Positions 1 to 26,100 of a stretch of DNA of 64,000 nucleotides are shown here, one piece after another (within the stretch, counting starts at the first letter, position 1; every line of letters begins with the position of its first letter). A program made the position numbers and the translations under genes. Below the pieces are notes generated by a model that saw nothing but the letters and a program-made list of their open reading frames with translations, had not been told where the DNA came from and ran no database searches. Origin of the DNA: a virus (lineage: Duplodnaviria > Heunggongvirae > Uroviricota > Caudoviricetes); IMG/VR virus record IMGVR_UViG_2526164631_000023; one strand, given 5' to 3'.

Positions 1-860
1 TCCCAGCCTTCAACGTGCTTGTCGGTCACCAGCAGGTTCAGCTTACGCTTGGACATCACAGTGTATTCCAGATTCAGGCGCGAAAATTCGTACTGGCGCG
101 GGTGAACAGGAATGGTGATGTTGTCCAGTACCCAGTCATACAGACGACGGTTGTCCTGGAACTCAAGCGTACACAGAGAGTGCGTAATACCTTCCAGCGC
201 ATCGCTGATGCAGTGGGTGAAGTCGTACATCGGGTAGATGCACCACTTGTTGCCAGTCTGGTGATGTTCAGCAAACTTAATGCGGTACAGCACCGGGTCG
301 CGCATCACGATAAACGGCGAAGCCATGTCGATTTTCGCACGCAGGCAGGCTTTACCTTCTTCAAAACCACCGGCACGCATTTTTTCGAACAGCGCCAGGT
401 TCTCTTCAACGCTGCGGTCGCGGTACGGGCTGTTTTTACCCGGCTGCGTCAGGGTGCCGCGGTATTCGCGGATCTGTTCCGGCGTCAGTTCGTCAACATA
501 CGCCAGGCCTTTGTTGATCAGTTCAACAGCATAGGCATGGAGTTTGTCAAAATAATCGGAGGAGTAACGGATGTTGCCAGACCAGTGAAAACCTAACCAT
601 TCAACGTCGTTTTTAATCGACTCGACGTACTCGATATCTTCTTTTACCGGGTTAGTGTCGTCGAAACGCAGGTTGCACTGGCCTTTATAGTCCTGGGCGA
701 TCCCGAAGTTCAGGCAGATAGATTTCGCATGACCAATATGCAGATAGCCATTCGGTTCCGGCGGGAAACGGGTATGTACTGTGGTGTGCTTACCACTGGC
801 CAGATCTTCATCGATGATCTGACGAATAAAGTTAGTCGGGCGGGCTTCTGCCTCACTCAT
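1..860 (-). CDS. glnS: Glutaminyl-tRNA synthetase, N-terminal ~286 codons; gene continues beyond window start
   Basis: Reverse-strand translation from ATG (complement of 858-860) reads [47 protein letters not shown]... with class I HIGH motif; recognised from memory as enterobacterial GlnS. Absent from ORF track because there is no stop inside the window. Confidence 0.85.
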
Positions 861-1015
861 TGTGGATTCCTCAAAGCGTAAACAACGTATAACGGCGTAT
901 GATCTTATAAGCAGAATAGGCTGACAACCACTAGTTGGTTAGAAATTACTTTCTATAGTTGTTTCAATAATGAGCTTTTTCATCAAGCCCACTTCTGCTC
1001 ATAAGTAAACCAGTG

Positions 1016-1095
1016 CTAAATGGTACACAATTGGCACCAAAAAGGATGTAAAGGTGCACCAAATCGGTGCTACATTGGTACACCTTTGGTTCAAT
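1016..1095. repeat. Cluster of degenerate GGTRCA / GGYACC hexamer repeats between glnS start and the small partition gene
   Basis: tGGTACAcaattGGCACCaaaaaggatgtaaaGGTGCACCaaatcGGTGCtacattGGTACACCtttGGTTCa; related motifs recur upstream of parA (2086-2260) and at 5026-5046. Confidence 0.3.
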
Positions 1096-1128
1096 AATTT
1101 TTAAGTTCTAAAACCAACCTGAAAGACA

Positions 1129-1413
1129 TTATTTTGCTTCCTCAGACTCCGCTAACATGAGGATTGCATGCCGAATCAAGTTCAATTTGCTGCGGTTCAG
1201 TTTTTTGCTTAAATCATCGAGTACGCCGTACTCATATTCATTAAAGCTCACGCGTATGGATTTAAAGTCACGCGGCGCATCTTTATCTGGAGTTTGAGTT
1301 GCAGCCTCAACGCCCGGCACCAAATCGGCTTTAATGGCGAACTCTTCAATGCGGCGCTCTAGTTCAGGGTCTTTTACAGCTTGTGCATTCACTGGCTCAC
1401 GGCGCTTAATCAC
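1129..1413 (-). CDS. Small partition protein, ParG-like ribbon-helix-helix centromere-binding partner of ParA
   Basis: 94 aa, immediately downstream of and overlapping (4 bp) the ParA gene; C-terminal KSIRVSFNEYEYGVLDDLSKKLNRSKLNLIRHAILMLA resembles RHH fold. Confidence 0.55.
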   Translation of the reverse strand: MIKRREPVNAQAVKDPELERRIEEFAIKADLVPGVEAATQTPDKDAPRDFKSIRVSFNEYEYGVLDDLSKKLNRSKLNLIRHAILMLAESEEAK

Positions 1414-2042
1414 GATAACAACTCCTTAATCAACATCTGGATCTCGCCCTTTGCTTTCCCGTTGTCCATTTCAACAACCCCCTTCCCTTCTGCCATGCAG
1501 TCACGATAAATCTTACGGTCACGGACGACAGTTTTCAGGAGTTCAAGTTGCGGGTATTCAGCAAGATATTCCCTTGCCTCATTGGCTTCGTTAACGACCG
1601 GGTTGGATGGTGCCATAGTCAGCATGGCATACGCCTTAAGTTTAGGGTTGAAATCCATCGCCTCAGCTATAACCTCAACAAGGTGCGGTAGAGTATCCAG
1701 ATCCGGCTGGGAAGGACGGAACGGCACCAGAAGCACATCTGCCGCTGTCATGCCTGTACGCATCTCACGACTGTCGCGACCAGCAGTATCGACGACAACG
1801 TACTCGTAACGTTTATCCAGATCGAGCAGCGTCTCACGAATATTATCGAACTTCTGCACGCAGTGAATGACAGGGGCAACCTCACCTGCATTACGGTCTG
1901 ACGCCCATCGAGCTGCCGTTCCCTGCTTATCAGCATCAATCAAGACGACATCTTTGTTTTTTCGGGCCAGCTCGGCACAAATATTGACGCTGGTGGTTGA
2001 CTTGCCACAGCCTCCCTTTTGACTTGCTACCAGGATAATCAT
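1410..2042 (-). CDS. parA: ParA/ParF-family partition ATPase (small type Ib, 210 aa)
   Basis: N-terminal deviant Walker A MIILVASQKGGCGKSTT; size and operon arrangement typical of type Ib partition ATPases. Confidence 0.85.
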   Translation of the reverse strand: MIILVASQKGGCGKSTTSVNICAELARKNKDVVLIDADKQGTAARWASDRNAGEVAPVIHCVQKFDNIRETLLDLDKRYEYVVVDTAGRDSREMRTGMTAADVLLVPFRPSQPDLDTLPHLVEVIAEAMDFNPKLKAYAMLTMAPSNPVVNEANEAREYLAEYPQLELLKTVVRDRKIYRDCMAEGKGVVEMDNGKAKGEIQMLIKELLS

Positions 2043-2280
2043 GTCCGCACCTCGGCTTTATTACGGCTCTATTTTCACACTAAAACGGTACCGATTTAAC
2101 ACATCAACGGTACAGCAATAGCACCATTCTTAATGCCGGGAGTATAACATCAAATCAGATGGATGCTGGTACACGTTTTGCGCCTGAATAGCACTAAATT
2201 AGTACCAAATATATACCAGTACATTAACAACACCAATTCGGCGTTGTTTTGGTGCCACTTCAACACCATTTTGACACCAA
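2043..2280. promoter_or_regulatory. parA upstream region with repeated GGTAC / TGGTGCC motifs: probable promoter-operator and/or centromere
   Basis: ggtaccg, ggtacag, gctggtacacg, agtaccaaa, ccagtacatt, tggtgccac within 240 bp; type Ib centromeres usually lie upstream of the ATPase gene. Confidence 0.35.
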
Positions 2281-2288
2281 ATTTGAAC

Positions 2289-2313
2289 AAAAAAGGCTGC
2301 AATTTGCAGCCTT
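2289..2313 (-). terminator. Intrinsic terminator downstream of parR
   Basis: Perfect 9-bp stem aaggctgca/tgcagcctt with 3-nt loop; on the minus strand followed by TTTTGTT. Confidence 0.55.
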
Positions 2314-2331
2314 AAGATAGAGTATGAACCG

Positions 2332-2676
2332 TCAATCAGGTAGAGAGTCAGCCAGATTGCGCGCCGACGCGCTTTTGGCAACAACTTGCTCCTTCACTGG
2401 CTCAATGGAGGCAGGTCGCTCTTCAACCGCAGCAGGTAGTTCCAGGAAGGATGCCAGCATTTTTCGGATCAGCTCCGGGTTATTGTCTTCGGTCAGCAGG
2501 GAAGCCAGTAATCCTGGAAGCCTGCTATCGACTTCTCCCAGCGCAAGCCCTGCCAACAATGCAGTTCTTGCCATATCGCTATGTTTTTTTATCTTCTCGC
2601 TCGCCGCCTTTTCATTGGCATAAGCCTCTGGGCGAAGATAAATCATCACTTTCTTACGTTCCTGAGACATGGACAT
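2332..2676 (-). CDS. parR: ParR/StbB-like centromere-binding adaptor of the ParM system
   Basis: 114 aa directly downstream of parM; segment HSDMARTALLAGLALGEVDSRLPGLLASLLT resembles R1 ParR as remembered. Confidence 0.6.
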   Translation of the reverse strand: MSMSQERKKVMIYLRPEAYANEKAASEKIKKHSDMARTALLAGLALGEVDSRLPGLLASLLTEDNNPELIRKMLASFLELPAAVEERPASIEPVKEQVVAKSASARNLADSLPD

Positions 2677-2682
2677 ACCTCG

Positions 2683-3663
2683 TTAACCGATTGCTTTCAG
2701 GCCATGAACAAGAGCAAGTTGCGGGTCATCCGCCACGAAGAAACGGTCATCACGAATATTAACTTGCTCGCGAATTGCATCTGCCACCAGCGGTGCGCCA
2801 CCACCGATCACCATGACATGCGTATATCCTTTAAAGTCGCCAATCACATCAAGAACGCGGGTACGCAGACGGTCAATGCTTGCGGCAATGGCCTTTTTCA
2901 CATCACCAATCGCTGATGGGTCATTGATATTGTCGTTCAGATAATCTTCATCGTGGCGGTTAATAATGAGCTGATCAACATTGTAATTTGACGTTTCGGT
3001 ATTGGCTCTGGCAAGTGCTTGCCTTACTTCCCTGGTAACCAGAGAGACGCCAAGATTCGAATCGCCAAAAACACGGGAAACTGCCGTCATTTGCCCGGCG
3101 ACCATTGAAACATCAAGGGTAGTTCCACCCAAATCGACGATAAGAACAGAATGGGCAGGGTTCAGATTGTCGCACAGGCCAATTCCTGCCGGAATAGACT
3201 CCGGGCGTACCGTAACTTTCTTAATCGTGAACACATTGCCTTTATTCAGCGTGACGGGGCGCATAAGGCTGGCTTTCTTGCGCTCGATGTTATCGAGATT
3301 GTATTGCGCGTCGTCGTCGTAAAACTCCGCCAGAGGCAGCGTGACCACAATTTCTACTTCCTGCGGCTCAATGCCACTTGTCAGCAGGGCATGGTGAACA
3401 GCCAGGACGTTAAGCGGGCTGTATTGCCATTCCACGTTATTCGTCGGCAGAACATCTGGCGAGATCAAATCATACGAATACTTTTCGTCGTCAATGACAT
3501 AGTTAAACGGCTTGCCAGCACAAAATGTTGCTGACCATCCGCGCTTAAAGCTGTTAGGGCTGATGTGAGTGCGAGTTTCCCCGTCGTGCTCCCACAGCAT
3601 TTTGATATTGGTTGAACCATCATCGATAAAAATGCGCATCTTCTTGCTCCACTTCTGAGACAC
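2683..3663 (-). CDS. parM: ParM/StbA actin-like plasmid segregation ATPase (type II partition)
   Basis: MRIFIDDGSTNIK..HISPNSFKR..WQYS..NVLAVHHALLTSG..ESIPAG..DLGGTTLD..YGDSNLGVSLVT..THVMVIGGGA: actin-fold phosphate and adenosine motifs closely matching R1 ParM as remembered. Confidence 0.85.
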   Translation of the reverse strand: MSQKWSKKMRIFIDDGSTNIKMLWEHDGETRTHISPNSFKRGWSATFCAGKPFNYVIDDEKYSYDLISPDVLPTNNVEWQYSPLNVLAVHHALLTSGIEPQEVEIVVTLPLAEFYDDDAQYNLDNIERKKASLMRPVTLNKGNVFTIKKVTVRPESIPAGIGLCDNLNPAHSVLIVDLGGTTLDVSMVAGQMTAVSRVFGDSNLGVSLVTREVRQALARANTETSNYNVDQLIINRHDEDYLNDNINDPSAIGDVKKAIAASIDRLRTRVLDVIGDFKGYTHVMVIGGGAPLVADAIREQVNIRDDRFFVADDPQLALVHGLKAIG

Positions 3664-3825
3664 ATTTGAGAATCAAAATGCAATTTTAAAAGAGAAGCAC
3701 CCAAAAATCCACACCAAAAGAGATAAAAAAGAGTGATTATTGAGTTCATTTTGAGAATATCTTAATCACCCAATGAATGATGGTCTGACAGTGAGATTTA
3801 TTTGAGAATGAATTGAGAATACAAA
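3664..3825. repeat. parC-like centromere: iterated TTGAGAAT repeats upstream of parM
   Basis: TTGAGAAT at 3666, 3751, 3802 and 3813 plus a degenerate copy near 3740, in AT-rich DNA immediately upstream of parM. Confidence 0.45.
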
Positions 3826-3905
3826 AATATTCCGAAATTTAACTCTCAGTTTGAATGACGAAATAACAAAGTGATGACAATAGGAGGATAACCAGGAGGT
3901 GAAGA

Positions 3906-4190
3906 ATGAGCGCAATAGCCACCAGCGACACCCTTTGTTCTGGTCACGGAGGATTTCCGCCGCGACTGGTAGCTGAAACTGTTCCCTGGTTCACCGTTAA
4001 CGGTAAGCCAATTGTTGTAGATGGTGCCATGTTTCCCAGTCACACTGACGGTAACAGTGCACATCCAGGGGCAGCTGTATCGACGCGAGTATGGTTTTCG
4101 ATAGGTGGAAAGGGAGTTGTCTGTGTAGGCGATCCGCTTTCTTGTGGTTCTGTTATCGCCAACGGCGAGGATATTTTTCAGGTTGCATAA
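3906..4190 (+). CDS. PAAR-like domain protein (spike-tip type)
   Basis: 94 aa with CSGHGG, VNGKPIVVDG, IGGKGVVCVGDPLSCGS repeats typical of PAAR domains; good SD aggagg upstream. Confidence 0.5.
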   Translation: MSAIATSDTLCSGHGGFPPRLVAETVPWFTVNGKPIVVDGAMFPSHTDGNSAHPGAAVSTRVWFSIGGKGVVCVGDPLSCGSVIANGEDIFQVA

Positions 4191-4993
4191 TGCTTGATTC
4201 AATAGGTGAAGTTAAAGCCTTCAAAATTCTGTCAGATGCCGGTATCTCTACACCAGAATCTATAACCATAAGCCGGGCAGCGTCTGTAAAAGCCTCATCA
4301 CTCGCCAGCGCCATACAGGGAATAGTTCACGCCGATAAAACCTATCCTGATTCTGTTTCGGCCTGGACTACTCAATTGCTTGGCTTTTCTGAACAGCTAA
4401 ATGAGGCCAGCAAAGCGTCTTCATTACTGGCTGATTCTCTTTCCCCATACACCAAGCCATCAGAGCTGTTACAGATGAAGATTGGCTGGGAATGCTACGT
4501 AAAAGGTAACGAGCTGACCCCCATACCTGCTTTCGCCCTTGTTGAGGGGATGGGGAATGTTTCCATTCCGCAATCTCTAACGGACGCATTGACGGCGCTA
4601 AAACTTGATGCTCTGAAAACCGCCATGAACGCCATTAACGCAAAAATAGAAGCTGCTGGAAGTGCTGGTGGTGATAGCAATGGTGGACAGGGTGGTGCTG
4701 GGGGCGCTCAGGCTCCAGTCATTACTCAGGATGAAATTGAAGCTTTACGGGAAGCAGTGACAGCCGCCGAAGTTTTACTCTCCGAAATTAACTCAGCAAG
4801 TGAGAGTGTCGTAGCCCTTACAGGTCGCATTAAAACGTCAACCACTCAGGCAACCAAAGGTTTAGAGAACGCTGTCGCCATCACGTTAACTGGTTCTCTA
4901 CTGGATGATGCAGTAATGAGTCCGGCAATCAGTTTAATCATGCCACAAGGCGTTATCGATGCGCTCCAAAAGAACACCAAAAAGGAACCATAG
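4190..4993 (+). CDS. Hypothetical protein with Gly-rich linker, translationally coupled to the PAAR gene
   Basis: ATG overlaps the PAAR stop (TAATG at 4188-4192); 267 aa; GSAGGDSNGGQGGAGGAQAP linker; the track start at 4091 is an upstream alternative. Confidence 0.45.
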   Translation: MLDSIGEVKAFKILSDAGISTPESITISRAASVKASSLASAIQGIVHADKTYPDSVSAWTTQLLGFSEQLNEASKASSLLADSLSPYTKPSELLQMKIGWECYVKGNELTPIPAFALVEGMGNVSIPQSLTDALTALKLDALKTAMNAINAKIEAAGSAGGDSNGGQGGAGGAQAPVITQDEIEALREAVTAAEVLLSEINSASESVVALTGRIKTSTTQATKGLENAVAITLTGSLLDDAVMSPAISLIMPQGVIDALQKNTKKEP

Positions 4994-5018
4994 CAACACC
5001 ACTTAGGAACACAAAAGG

Positions 5019-5522
5019 ATGCGAATTGGTACATGTTTAACACCAAAAATGAACCTGGAGAGGATGGTTTTGAAAAAGATAATTTTGATTGTAATTGCGC
5101 TTTTAGCCATTTCTGGAATTTACCGAACAACGACGGCAGTTATCGAACACATCAGGTATGTCCGATCGCTTGAAGACTCAAAATCACAACTGGAAAGCAC
5201 GAACAACACGCTTTCTACCGCATTACAGTTAAGTGAGAACGCTCGCTCAGCCATGCTGACCGAAAACGAAAGAATTAAAGCACTGGAAAAGGAGTACCAG
5301 CGCAAAACAGCAGAACTGAATGCCAACCTAATCAAACAACGAGAGGAAAGCCAGAATGAAATCACTCGCCTTGAAAATGCGTTGCGCCGTGCTGGGATTA
5401 ACGATGTGCGTGTGCCTGATGACGTTATCAGGATGCAGCGGGAACGGGCAAAAGCCATCAACCAGCGTGCCAGTGAAAATTACCGTAGAAGCCACCAGCA
5501 AGCCGCAGGCAAATCTGATTGA
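5019..5522 (+). CDS. i-spanin (Rz-like): N-terminal membrane anchor plus periplasmic coiled coil
   Basis: Hydrophobic KKIILIVIALLAISGIY followed by charged heptad-rich region; true start may be an internal ATG (5049 or 5064). Confidence 0.5.
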   Translation: MRIGTCLTPKMNLERMVLKKIILIVIALLAISGIYRTTTAVIEHIRYVRSLEDSKSQLESTNNTLSTALQLSENARSAMLTENERIKALEKEYQRKTAELNANLIKQREESQNEITRLENALRRAGINDVRVPDDVIRMQRERAKAINQRASENYRRSHQQAAGKSD

Positions 5523-5688
5523 TTACTCCCCTTGTTTAGTGCCAGAAGACACGCCAGTGCTGTTAAACAAGTATCCGACATACGCTGAACAGTTATTCAG
5601 CACGATCGACGAATGCAACCAACGAAACGCACTGAATAACCAAAGAAACAGGGAGATTTGGGAAGGGAAGGGGGATCAAGGCTCCTGA
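5356..5688 (+). CDS. o-spanin (Rz1-like) outer-membrane lipoprotein, out of frame within and beyond the i-spanin 3' end
   Basis: Signal peptide with lipobox LMTLSGC; SD gaggaaag 8 nt upstream of ATG; overlaps 5356-5522 of the i-spanin gene in another frame. Confidence 0.5.
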   Translation: MKSLALKMRCAVLGLTMCVCLMTLSGCSGNGQKPSTSVPVKITVEATSKPQANLIDYSPCLVPEDTPVLLNKYPTYAEQLFSTIDECNQRNALNNQRNREIWEGKGDQGS

Positions 5689-6134
5689 AGCCAGATGTCC
5701 TGGCTGTCAGCTTCTTCGAAACCGTGACAGACGTTAAAGTCACTCAAACGATACTGACGCTGACGGCCCCTATTTCGCTCATGCCAATGCATATATCCAC
5801 CAGCAAATGCCAGCGGACAATCGCTATAGTCTATGTAACCAATACCATTCCCCAAACGTGCTTCGCGCGCACCAGCTTTCCAGGACAGTAGAAAAGAGTC
5901 ACGATCCGCCAGCATAACAACAAAATCGTCCGGATCTCCGATACAGTGAAGAATACCTGCCTTACATAACTGCTTGAGCGCTTTTGACTGGCTCAGGATG
6001 TCTTCTCCGTAATACTGAAAACAATCATCAACAACAGCGGGATAGCCTGTCGGGGGATTCAGGCTGGTTGGTATAGCTGACGCGATCGCCAGCATTAAGC
6101 GATATTGTGTTTTTGATGGGTTGACGTGACTCAT
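5676..6134 (-). CDS. Hypothetical protein (152 aa, Cys/His-rich)
   Basis: ORF only; second gene of a leftward two-gene unit downstream of operator-like site at 6557. Confidence 0.3.
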   Translation of the reverse strand: MSHVNPSKTQYRLMLAIASAIPTSLNPPTGYPAVVDDCFQYYGEDILSQSKALKQLCKAGILHCIGDPDDFVVMLADRDSFLLSWKAGAREARLGNGIGYIDYSDCPLAFAGGYMHWHERNRGRQRQYRLSDFNVCHGFEEADSQDIWLQEP

Positions 6135-23153: not shown

Positions 23154-26100
23154 TTATGGGTGCTGATAAAACGAACAACATAATGACACTATCCTCTGGT
23201 GTCTCACAGCCGTTGCTTGCTGATGTTCAATATTTCGAACTCTATAGTAGTTCGGCTCTTAACAGAAAACTTAAAAATATTGTTTTGCCGGGCTTTTACT
23301 GTGGATTTGAACCAGTTCCCGGCGCAGGGTTGAGAGTCCGTATAACTTCTGAAAACTCAGAAGGTAAAGGGGCTGCTTCAGTAGATGTAAATAATGTTCA
23401 GATATCCGTTCAGCAAATAGAAGATGTGACTGTCTCGGTAAAGGCTGGGGCTACCAACATTATTGTGCTAGAAGCCAATTTTGAACATGGTGTAAAAACG
23501 ACACAGGTAGAGAGCGCATCTTCTGTCAGTGCTGCAAGAATTTACGCGCGTACGGACAATACTATTGGGCAGAATCAAATTGAATTATGTCGAGTTATCG
23601 TGCCTAACGGCGCAACGGCTGTGACGAAAGAAATGATTGTGCTTAAATACCGGGTTAACCGTGCTGTTGGTGTCGAATTCTCTAATGAAATAAGCAGTAC
23701 AGAAGAAAGAAAAGCGGCTACACCTCTGGCTGTCAAAACTCTCCATGATTTGGTTGATACAAAAGCTCCGCTCGATAGTCCACATCTGTCAGGTACGCCG
23801 ACAGCACCTACGGCCTCACAAGGCACAAATAGCACGCAGATTGCAAATACAGCCTTTGTTAAGGCAGCTATAACTGCACTTATCAACGGTGCACCTGGCA
23901 CACTGGATACGCTGAAAGAAATAGCGGCTGCGATCAATAACGACCCGAATTTCAGCACAACTATCAACAATGCCCTGGCTCTCAAAGCGCCTTTGGCAAG
24001 CCCGGCGTTCACAGGTACGCCGACAGCACCTACGGCCTCACAAGGCACAAATAGCACGCAGATTGCTACGACCGCTTATGTAAGAGCTGCCATATCCGCA
24101 TTGGTTGGTTCATCACCAGAAGCTCTTGATACCCTGAATGAGCTTGCCGCAGCACTTGGTAATGACCCGAACTTTGCGACAACAATGACAAATGCGCTGG
24201 CAGGCAAACAGCCTCTGGATGCAACTTTAACCGCTCTTGCTTCCCTTGCGACTGGTGCAAACAAACTGCCTTATTTCACGGGTAAGGATACGGTAGCTCA
24301 GACTGATTTAACGTCAGTCGGTCGCGATATTCTGGCTAAAACAAGCATACTGGCCGTTATCCAATACCTTGGTTTAAGAGAACTCGGTACCAGCGGTGAA
24401 AAGATCCCCCTGTTAAGCACAGCTAACACATGGAGTGCGCGCCAGACTTTCAACGGCGGGATCACCGGGGCGCTGACAGGGAACGCCGACACCGCGACGA
24501 AATTGAAAACCAAAAGGTCGCTTCAAGTTGACCTCCAAAGTGATAACGCCATCGACTTTGATGGTTCATCAAATGCTCTTCTGGGCATAAAAGGTATTTT
24601 ACCAATTACTCATGGGGGATTAGGTGCATCCAGCGTCTCTGGAGGGCGTACTAATCTTGGATTAGGTGTTGCGGACGTCCCCCAATTTAAGGGTATCAAT
24701 CTTGTTAACTCAACAGACGCTGATTTAGCCGCGTCAGGGATTGTAAGTGGTTATCTGAATAATTCAGCTGGGGTACAGAGGAGTCGTTTCAGAATTTATT
24801 CAGAGATAAGGAGTGGCAACCGCTCATGGCTGACGTTACATCTACAATCTGATACCAACACCAATAAATATGCCGGATTAGACATTGACGGTAACTTTCT
24901 GATTACCGGAGATAGCAAATGCCGAGCATTAGAACCAACTGATGCAGCGTTAACAAGAAAAAATATTGATGTTTACAGCAAAGCCGAAGTAGACCTTAAA
25001 AAAGGGATGAAATTCACCAGAGTCAATGCTCCTTCTGGAGCTGAAGAGGGTAAATTCTATCCTGTAGTCATCAAGAGATCTGCAACGAGCAATGGTGAAC
25101 TTGCTTCTCGGGTTATTATTTCCACTGCGTCGCGCCAAGCTGCACATCGCATGAACAACTGCGAATTCAATGGTTTTGTGATGCCTGCTGGTTGGAGTGA
25201 CAGAGGGCGGTACGCATACGGGATGTTCTGGCAATATCAGGATGCAGAACGGGCGATTCATTCTATTGCGATGAGCAATAAAGACGATGAAGTTAGCTCA
25301 GTTTTTTATATTGAAGGCGGAGCATTTCCAGTATGCGTTCTTGTGGAGGAGGGGCTTTCTGTTGTTGTCCCTACAACGGATTATATTGTTGGACAAACCA
25401 CATACAAATGGGGGGCTACCAACCCTAAAGCTGAATGTATAGCTGCCGACATAATTATTGATTTTAGCAATGGTCGTGGTTTCTATAGCTCTGGAAACCT
25501 CAATGGTAATGCTGCAACAGCAACTAAATTACAGACCGCCAGAACAATCAACGGAGTAACCTTCGATGGCACTACTGATATTTCGTTGACACCAGAGAAC
25601 ATTGGCGCGCTGTCTCTATCCGGAGGCACATTATTAGGAGGTCTGACAGCTCCATTACTTACCACTAAAAGCGATCTTATTTTTAGTAGCCATACAAGCC
25701 GTCATATCCGCTTTACATATACGAAAAATGACGGCACAACACTAACTGATGGGTACATATTTAAAGATGGCGTCGATAACCCTAACAGACGACCAGGCAT
25801 CCGGATAAATTGTGCTGCGCCGAATAAAGAAACCGGCAATGGTACTAATTCAGGTGATTGGATATTCGGTGAAGATGGCATTTTTACCATGCCGGGTGGC
25901 ACTGTTCTTCGGGGAGGAATCAATAGCAATGGCGTGCCGCAAAGTGAGTATAAACATGACATGCTCACGTCAGTTGTTGACGATGCAAAAATGTATCTGC
26001 GACGTTTCCGCTCCAGCACAGGTGCAAGCATATGGCATGAAACAATAGAGAATAATGTTTATCGCTTATGCACAGGAACAACTGACGCTCAGGAAGAGTT

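Follow-up and report, generated by a model that had tools for sequence, protein, structure and literature searches.

The region analyzed here lies near the start of a 64,000-nucleotide stretch of viral DNA (IMG/VR record IMGVR_UViG_2526164631_000023; the whole stretch, one strand read 5' to 3', is called the window) and centers on a small operon encoding a ParF-like ATPase and a protein of 94 residues, together with arrays of a degenerate 11-bp repeat at three sites. The arrays exist, and they travel with the ATPase and small-protein gene pair across distant plasmids. By analogy with described systems, they quite probably serve as centromere and operator in a type Ib (ParF/ParG-like) partition system, with arrays upstream of the operon, downstream of it and at a remote position, and with the 94-residue protein as the candidate binder. 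Positions 850-5200 match an E. coli plasmid of 97 kb (NZ_CP066033.1) at 100% identity and phage D6, a P1-like plasmid prophage, at about 92%, and matches to this stretch are found in 134 plasmid records; on these matches, the window is a D6-like plasmid prophage (a phage-plasmid). The features of the partition region, with the remote array, are as follows.

1010..1096, no strand assigned: site A, the downstream array of eight 11-bp slots between the stop codon of the small gene and glnS.
1129..1413, minus strand: open reading frame (ORF) of the 94-residue protein, the candidate centromere-binding protein.
1410..2042, minus strand: ParF-like small Walker-type ParA ATPase of 210 residues.
2063..2128, no strand assigned: site B1, six units of 11 bp that separate the putative promoter from the parA start codon (a leader or operator position).
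2141..2149, minus strand: putative extended -10 element TGTTATACT, read by eye and lying between B1 and B2.
2166..2292, no strand assigned: site B2, about twelve units upstream of the promoter, reaching the parMR terminator.
2293..2313, minus strand: intrinsic terminator hairpin AAGGCTGCAAATTGCAGCCTT followed by TTTTTG, kept in all D6-like relatives.
4960..5047, no strand assigned: site C, eight 11-bp slots covering the end of an upfB-like ORF and the 70-bp spacer before an Rz-like gene.

The four arrays are built from one degenerate, near-palindromic unit of 11 bp. An earlier note on this DNA had described a family of degenerate hexamers, GGTRCA and GGYACC, shared with CACCAAA and AAAAGGATG strings and recurring at three sites around the partition genes. 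Every one of these strings is present. On the plus strand, GGTRCA occurs at 1022, 1053, 1077, 2109, 2168 and 5028, GGYACC at 1033 and 2087, and CACCAAA at 1035, 1057, 2275 and 5041; AAAAGGATG has just two plus-strand copies in the 64-kb window, at 1040 and 5013. They do belong to a single repeat family, but printing the sequence in an 11-bp register aligns the units and reveals the strings as pieces of one phased near-palindrome rather than two unrelated hexamers. Each site is longer than the extents first given (1016-1095, 2086-2260 and 5026-5046), and the third, instead of lying around the partition genes, precedes the Rz/Rz1 spanin (lysis) genes.

The ideal unit is TTGGTACCAAA, with the core GGnnCC. 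A weight matrix refined iteratively on the window and three D6-like relatives gives the consensus T-T-G-G-Y-A-C-C-A-A-A, in which G4 and C7 are the most constrained positions, and the start-to-start distances between units are almost always 11, 22 or 33 bp. Because the ideal decamer TTGGTACCAA is self-reverse-complementary, units with a good left half were seen as GGTRCA and those with a good right half as GGYACC or CACCAAA, and a scan of the minus strand shows weaker copies of the same peaks. The AAAAGGATG strings occupy one in-phase slot each in sites A and C and, from their letters, look like degenerate GGAnCC units; the slot at 1042-1052 in site A (AAGGATGTAAA) and, like it, the slot at 5015-5025 in site C (AAGGATGCGAA) are degenerate units. 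In distant relatives, GGAACC, GGAGCC and GGTTCC units are found 11 bp either side of a central GGTACC, in long palindromes. Site B1 holds a 22-bp tandem pair (2073-2094 and 2095-2116; family D15 of the repeat finder), and site B2 has a single 6-bp phase slip at 2210/2216. The same repeat finder, run independently, matches 33 nt of site A to site C at 76% identity and finds the 12-mer TGGTACAYRTTT once per site in all three sites.

Counts of single words say little about these sites. The decamer TTGGTACCAA with up to two mismatches has 29 matches window-wide against 29 expected, and when GGYRCM and similar words are counted in 90-bp windows the sites rank weakly, with modest clustering of the hexamers. 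A phased-array statistic was therefore used instead, in which the positive matrix scores of seven slots 11 bp apart are summed, with leave-one-site-out training, so that a matrix derived from one site is scored on the others. This measure is decisive, with the arrays scoring above all shuffles. A matrix from site B only gives 37.7 for site A and 36.2 for site C, one from site A only gives 36.8 and 27.0 for site B and 26.9 for site C, and one from site C only gives 38.6 for site A and 39.5 for site B; B2 scores 51.9 with the matrix from site B itself and 36.8-44.4 when site B is left out. The best scores in 40 dinucleotide shuffles of the whole window are 22-24.4. A period of 11 scores 42-51, against 26 or less for the other periods within 7-15. 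When the complete 97-kb plasmid was scanned, no further array was found (next best score 21.5), and the arrays are a real cis-element family that is unique in the plasmid. The next best real locus in the window, at 23754-23830, scores 18-21; it falls inside the shuffled range and was treated as noise.

It might still be argued that the arrays are not specific protein sites at all, and instead represent phased A-tracts in bent, AT-rich intergenic DNA or chance similarity. The units do end in AAA, which places A-tracts every 11 bp, and single-unit matches are not enriched across the window. However, it is the G/C core (G4 and C7), not the A-tract, that is best conserved, and the array scores are 1.5-2.5 times the dinucleotide-shuffle maximum. 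Together with the invariance of the site C cores across lineages and the recurrence of the GGnnCC core at homologous operons in seven distant loci, this makes such an explanation extremely improbable.

The presence of the motif follows that of the 94-residue protein. The protein is encoded in six D6-like lineages, namely the window, D6, pEHP91H1-2, pHX138.33gt_1, a Shigella dysenteriae plasmid and an E. marmotae plasmid. Site A is kept in D6, pEHP91H1-2 and the S. dysenteriae and E. marmotae plasmids, even where its flank is changed by the lack of glnS, and all the arrays keep their 11-bp phasing across the D6-like lineages. Site B is unalignable between D6-like lineages, yet phased 11-bp units are always retained, a pattern that reads as turnover under constraint. 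When window positions 1129-2331 are compared with D6 (locus L001, 1780-2988), the small protein is about 75% identical, flanking genes being about 92-99% identical among D6-like plasmids, and the region upstream of parA is unalignable (a megablast gap). Judged from these alignments, the type Ib cassette, with its control region, is evolving or recombining at a much higher rate than the remainder, while the motif consensus is constant.

Homologues of the gene pair are also located on Serratia, Aeromonas, Rahnella, Arsenophonus, Marinobacter and Hahella plasmids and on one metagenomic contig. The small proteins are 46-54% identical in the four that were aligned (Serratia, Aeromonas, Rahnella and Arsenophonus) and 46-58% by tblastn; a tblastn search with the 94-residue protein gave no E. 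coli match besides D6-like plasmids. These seven distant elements have different replicons (repA, RepB, Replicase/PriCT) and lack ParMR neighbors. With the D6-trained matrix, the top arrays in their loci fall exactly upstream (scores of 32-63) and immediately downstream (34-50) of the operon, and the rest of each locus scores below about 20. The Aeromonas locus is an exception, with upstream arrays only and a Tn3-family transposase gene after the operon. In P1/D6-like plasmids of Citrobacter, Leclercia, Enterobacter and Acinetobacter, which lack the 94-residue protein, no arrays are found (maximum scores 13-18), and these four relatives have a different small partner or none nearby. The suggestion in the earlier note that the small partition protein (the 1129..1413 product) may bind the repeats is thus favored by comparison, in that the motif flanks homologous gene pairs and is missing where the protein is. 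Phage repressor sites were considered as well, and rejected because the arrays are present in non-phage plasmids.

In Citrobacter (L012, 4563-4716) and Leclercia (L013, 3026-3134), a different small ParA partner is encoded at the same genomic position. These partners have 97 and 96 residues, respectively, with a KSRPVTVSLTD strand, and the upstream repeats at the promoter are of a GTCACAYTG type; from the sequences, this looks like module replacement with a matching change in the cis site. A separate conserved gene encoding 78 residues, for which there is no Pfam match, is divergent from parA in Aeromonas (L006, 1422-1658), Marinobacter (L014, 1923-2159) and Hahella (L016, 1910-2146). It shares the array-containing intergenic region with parA, and the two may therefore be co-regulated.

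The arrays of site B are arranged around a putative promoter. The sequence AGTATAACA between B1 and B2 reads as TGTTATACT on the gene strand (TGnTATACT), and AGTATA[A/G]CA is the one block that stays conserved in all six D6-like lineages, the spacer around it being unalignable. The expected -35 position is overlapped by the unit at 2166-2176, and the leader is taken up by B1. A consensus promoter scan makes no call in site B and the -35 is poor, so that the extended -10 in the gap is best described as the putative promoter of the parA operon. In the Serratia, Aeromonas and Arsenophonus homologues, clear promoters (TTGACA or TTGCTA, 17 bp, and a -10) are embedded in the arrays. A short-repeat centromere at the operon promoter, doubling as operator, is a feature of type Ib systems, and the corresponding layout is seen here in the flanking of the conserved extended -10 by B1 and B2 and in the homologues with promoters inside their arrays. 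The predicted hairpin at 2293-2313 terminates the parM-parR operon that lies upstream and sets the left edge of the type Ib control region; since B2 stops at this strong terminator, the ParA operon is a separate unit.

The ATPase has the deviant Walker A motif QKGGCGKST and matches the Pfam families AAA_31, MipZ, CbiA and VirC1. Its best match in the PDB, over the full length, is ParF of TP228 (4dzz, E 6.6e-19); against the NCBIfam model ParA_partition it scores 165 bits, under the cut-off of 180. It is thus a small ParA with a deviant Walker A motif, within the type Ib range of about 200-220 residues and without an N-terminal DNA-binding domain.

The start of the 94-residue gene overlaps the parA stop by 4 bp. 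Its product begins with a basic N-terminus (MIKRRE), continues through a flexible middle part and ends in a predicted ribbon-helix-helix (RHH) domain at about residues 50-94. It has no Pfam family (E<=0.01), no NCBIfam match and no sequence match in the PDB at E<=10, either as a single sequence or as a 52-sequence profile, and it corresponds to PHROG 9169, of unknown function. A first word-indexed homology search returned close relatives only; a profile search found 533 clusters, all unnamed except for one "CopG domain" label, and an exhaustive search of representatives found 98 clusters, all unnamed. Invariant or near-invariant residues are M1, K3, R4, R5, K51, I53, R54, V55, P56, F57 and N58. 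The near-invariance across the family of the predicted DNA-reading strand (K51, I53, R54, V55, F57 and N58) fits with an unchanged motif. An AlphaFold model built with 52 sequences has an extended stretch at 51-57 and helices at 59-72 and 76-93, with a predicted local distance difference test score (pLDDT) of about 90 there. A Foldseek search of the PDB with it returned almost only RHH proteins (ParD, TacA, PutA, CopG, Arc, AmrZ, AtaR and ParG, 1p94), with root-mean-square deviations of 1.3-3 A over 40-50 residues and E values of about 1, which reflect how small the domain is. Judged by this model, the protein probably joins an RHH domain to a basic, flexible tail at its N-terminus, as centromere-binding proteins of type Ib systems usually do (PMC3074162; PMC5016525). 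Its resemblance to ParG is at the level of the predicted fold, with no detectable sequence homology. With its putative centromere arrays, ParF-like ATPase and candidate RHH partner, the system is type Ib by architecture.

In the D6 GenBank record the small gene is annotated as hypothetical, and no repeat feature is annotated across the stretch; the gene is labelled "cop" without analysis in PMC6799933. A literature text search for the motif string returned primer sequences only, in a coverage that does not include the D6 genome paper (Gilcrease and Casjens 2018). Neither the protein family nor its motif appears to have been described so far.

The genes surrounding the type Ib region and the remote array are the following.

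1-860, minus strand: glnS, a full glutaminyl-tRNA synthetase gene, with its end at 860.
2332-2676, minus strand: StbB/ParR-like gene encoding a protein of 114 residues.
2683-3663, minus strand: parM.
3906-4190, plus strand: PAAR/upfC-like gene.
4190-4993, plus strand: upfB-like gene.
5064-5522, plus strand: Rz-like i-spanin gene; PHROG Rz-like spanin families 214, 89 and 456 match over 5064..5688.
5356-5688, plus strand: Rz1-like lipoprotein gene overlapping the Rz-like gene, with the lipobox LSGC in its translation.

Immediately downstream of site A comes glnS, which shares the orientation of the par operon, and no terminator was detected between the two. In two relatives without glnS (L003 and L004), the array is followed by a hairpin terminator and a Dam methylase gene. 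The Rz-like and Rz1-like genes overlap in different frames, and the latter runs past the end of the former, giving an overlapped rather than an embedded architecture; their counterparts in the D6 record are the hypothetical genes orf55 and orf54. An Rfam scan of 800-5800 found no RNA family at E<=1.

The proximity of the parMR operon raises the question of whether the arrays could belong to it, being bound by the StbB/ParR-like adaptor of 114 residues, or whether they could be iterons of a replication initiator. ParR of plasmid R1 uses 11-bp iterons, and the parMR operon adjoins site B. The repeats of R1 parC are also split around a promoter (PMC5016525). However, a different repeat, TTGAGAAT, which is likewise spaced by 11 bp, lies upstream of parM at 3656-3823, where a parC would be expected. 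The GGnnCC arrays, moreover, accompany the ATPase and 94-residue pair in plasmids that lack ParMR and have unrelated replication genes, and the full plasmid has no array near repB. Binding by the adaptor or an initiator is thus very improbable. Copies of TTGAGAAT are found at about 3666, 3739, 3750, 3802 and 3813, partly 11 bp apart, and are kept in D6-like relatives; from their position, these repeats lie where the StbB/ParR-like protein would be expected to have its type II parC centromere.

Several known partition systems resemble the module in some respects and differ in others. The ParF-ParG-parH system of TP228 likewise pairs a small ParA of about 210 residues with a small protein encoded downstream, whose N-terminus is flexible and whose C-terminus is an RHH domain (predicted, in the present case). 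Its centromere and operator are degenerate short boxes with AT-rich spacers at the operon promoter, as described in PMC3130281 and PMC5016525. The 94-residue protein has no detectable sequence similarity to ParG; the unit here is a phased 11-bp GGnnCC near-palindrome in place of the tetramer boxes of TP228, and arrays are also present downstream of the operon and at a remote third site. In plasmid pB171, ParB has about 90 residues and autoregulates through parC1, around which the par operons are divergent. The par2 locus of pB171 has centromere-like arrays both upstream and downstream of a small parA-parB operon (parC1-parA-parB-parC2) and adjoins a type II ParMR system (PMC4270457). Two centromere-like regions are present here too, B upstream and A downstream, and the same layout is found in six of the seven distant loci. 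In contrast to pB171, the two par operons of the window are tandem and co-directional with a terminator between them, and there is a third site.

In the delta/omega system of pSM19035, the omega arrays act as centromeres and as operators of different genes. The likeness lies in a single RHH protein (again predicted here) with several separate arrays, which for omega consist of 7-10 contiguous short repeats at parS1-parS3 (PMC5016525). The omega repeats differ in being 7-bp heptads without spacers, the genes are not in one operon and the host is Gram-positive. R1 parC comprises ten 11-bp iterons bound by an RHH protein. It shares with the present arrays the 11-bp period and the division of the repeats into two blocks with the operon promoter between them (PMC5016525). 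R1 uses the actin-like ParM, whereas the arrays described here go with a Walker-type ParA and the ParM system has repeats of its own. Finally, in the linear phage-plasmid N15, partition sites reportedly lie away from the par operon, some of them beside phage genes, in work said to be that of Ravin and Lane in 1999 and of Grigoriev and Lobocka in 2001. Dispersed sites on a phage-plasmid would be the point in common; N15 differs in having a type Ia SopAB system with inverted-repeat sites.

A mechanism can be proposed by analogy with TP228 ParFG-parH, pB171 par2 and pSM19035 omega. Most likely, each 11-bp unit would be bound by one dimer of the 94-residue RHH protein, at the GGnnCC core with its T-rich and A-rich flanks. 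The 11-bp spacing would place successive dimers on about the same face of the helix and allow cooperative coating of an array. Binding at site B, on both sides of the parA promoter, would repress the operon and at the same time build the partition complex. In type Ib systems generally, the centromere is an array of repeats at the promoter of the operon, and the RHH proteins that bind it double as repressors (PMC5016525; PMC3074162). Site A may form a second centromere-like complex, in the manner of parC2 in pB171 par2. Once on the DNA, the protein would stimulate the ParF-like ATPase through its basic N-terminal tail, and the ATPase would position plasmid copies over the nucleoid. Site C would be a third array for the same protein, either adding to the partition complex or acting on the spanin genes.

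Site C is located 2.7 kb from site B. It takes in the final 11 codons of the upfB-like ORF with its stop codon, and the first three units encode the final residues of the upfB-like protein. The last clear unit, at 5037-5047, stops 9 bp short of the Rz-like gene's ribosome-binding site (5056-5062), and the start codon of that gene is 17 bp past the end of the site. The array is present in all six lineages with the 94-residue protein (scores of 37-57), and its unit cores are invariant in a five-lineage alignment. In all four relatives without the protein, there is no such array (scores of 5-10), and the upfB and spanin counterparts abut at 1-14 bp.

Remote arrays occur in two of the distant plasmids as well. 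In Hahella (L016, 3285-5400), what looks like a remote array is the more distant half of the downstream array, which has been cut in two by an inserted cassette of a methylase and a NotI-like restriction gene, and the sequence that follows it matches the sequence after the downstream array of Marinobacter. In Serratia (L005, 2860-4068), extra arrays flank a fertility-inhibition (PFIN) gene, beyond an IS256 element that follows the downstream array. These cases indicate that remote arrays can arise by insertion. Insertion does not explain site C, because it lies inside a conserved block of phage genes.

It may be that site C is mainly a regulatory operator or roadblock, through which the partition protein silences Rz/Rz1 or read-through from upfC-upfB in the plasmid-prophage state. 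The closeness of its end to the Shine-Dalgarno sequence and start codon of the Rz-like gene would suit such a role, as would the adjoining of the upfB and spanin counterparts, with no spacer, in relatives without the protein, and the extra arrays around the PFIN gene of the Serratia plasmid. There are also precedents. Omega of pSM19035 and KorB of RK2 are partition proteins that double as regulators, and the omega sites are all promoters. They are found, like those described here, at three separate locations (PMC5016525). However, no promoter-like element is recognized at site C, and RHH arrays repress by promoter occlusion, with an elongation-roadblock action not established for them. A mainly regulatory site C is therefore on the unlikely side, and such a role would be compatible with its also being a centromere. 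A bolder version, in which the partition adaptor has been recruited as a regulator of the prophage state and silences or insulates Rz/Rz1 via site C, itself gained between upfB and the spanin genes only where this protein is encoded, is doubtful; if it were true, plasmid partition would be physically coupled to lysis control. A variant, in which site C and sites A and B loop the 4-kb region with its two par operons (type Ib and type II) into a single complex, is equally doubtful. Any regulatory role of site C is speculative, and site C is the sole part of the arrangement that could go beyond textbook partition biology.

Several points weigh against assigning the arrays to a type Ib system with sites upstream, downstream and remote. 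The individual units are weak, and the decamer shows no excess across the window. Support for the RHH fold consists of an AlphaFold monomer model with a mean pLDDT of 75 and of Foldseek matches with E of about 1; at the sequence level, the 94-residue protein matches neither ParG nor omega nor any Pfam family. Neither inspection by eye nor the consensus scan revealed a convincing sigma-70 promoter at site C, and the split array of Hahella suggests that remote arrays need not be functional innovations. The type Ib assignment nevertheless is the probable one.

E. coli, Salmonella and Shigella commonly carry D6-like phage-plasmids, whose second partition module is annotated only as an AAA family ATPase and a hypothetical protein. 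This module now has a candidate centromere and operator motif (TTGGYACCAAA every 11 bp) and a candidate binder from an uncharacterized family, which comprises more than 500 sequence clusters and is spread over gammaproteobacterial plasmids. The TTGGYACCAAA arrays may serve as a sequence signature for annotating the system elsewhere, and the sites could be used in work on plasmid stability, incompatibility and regulation.

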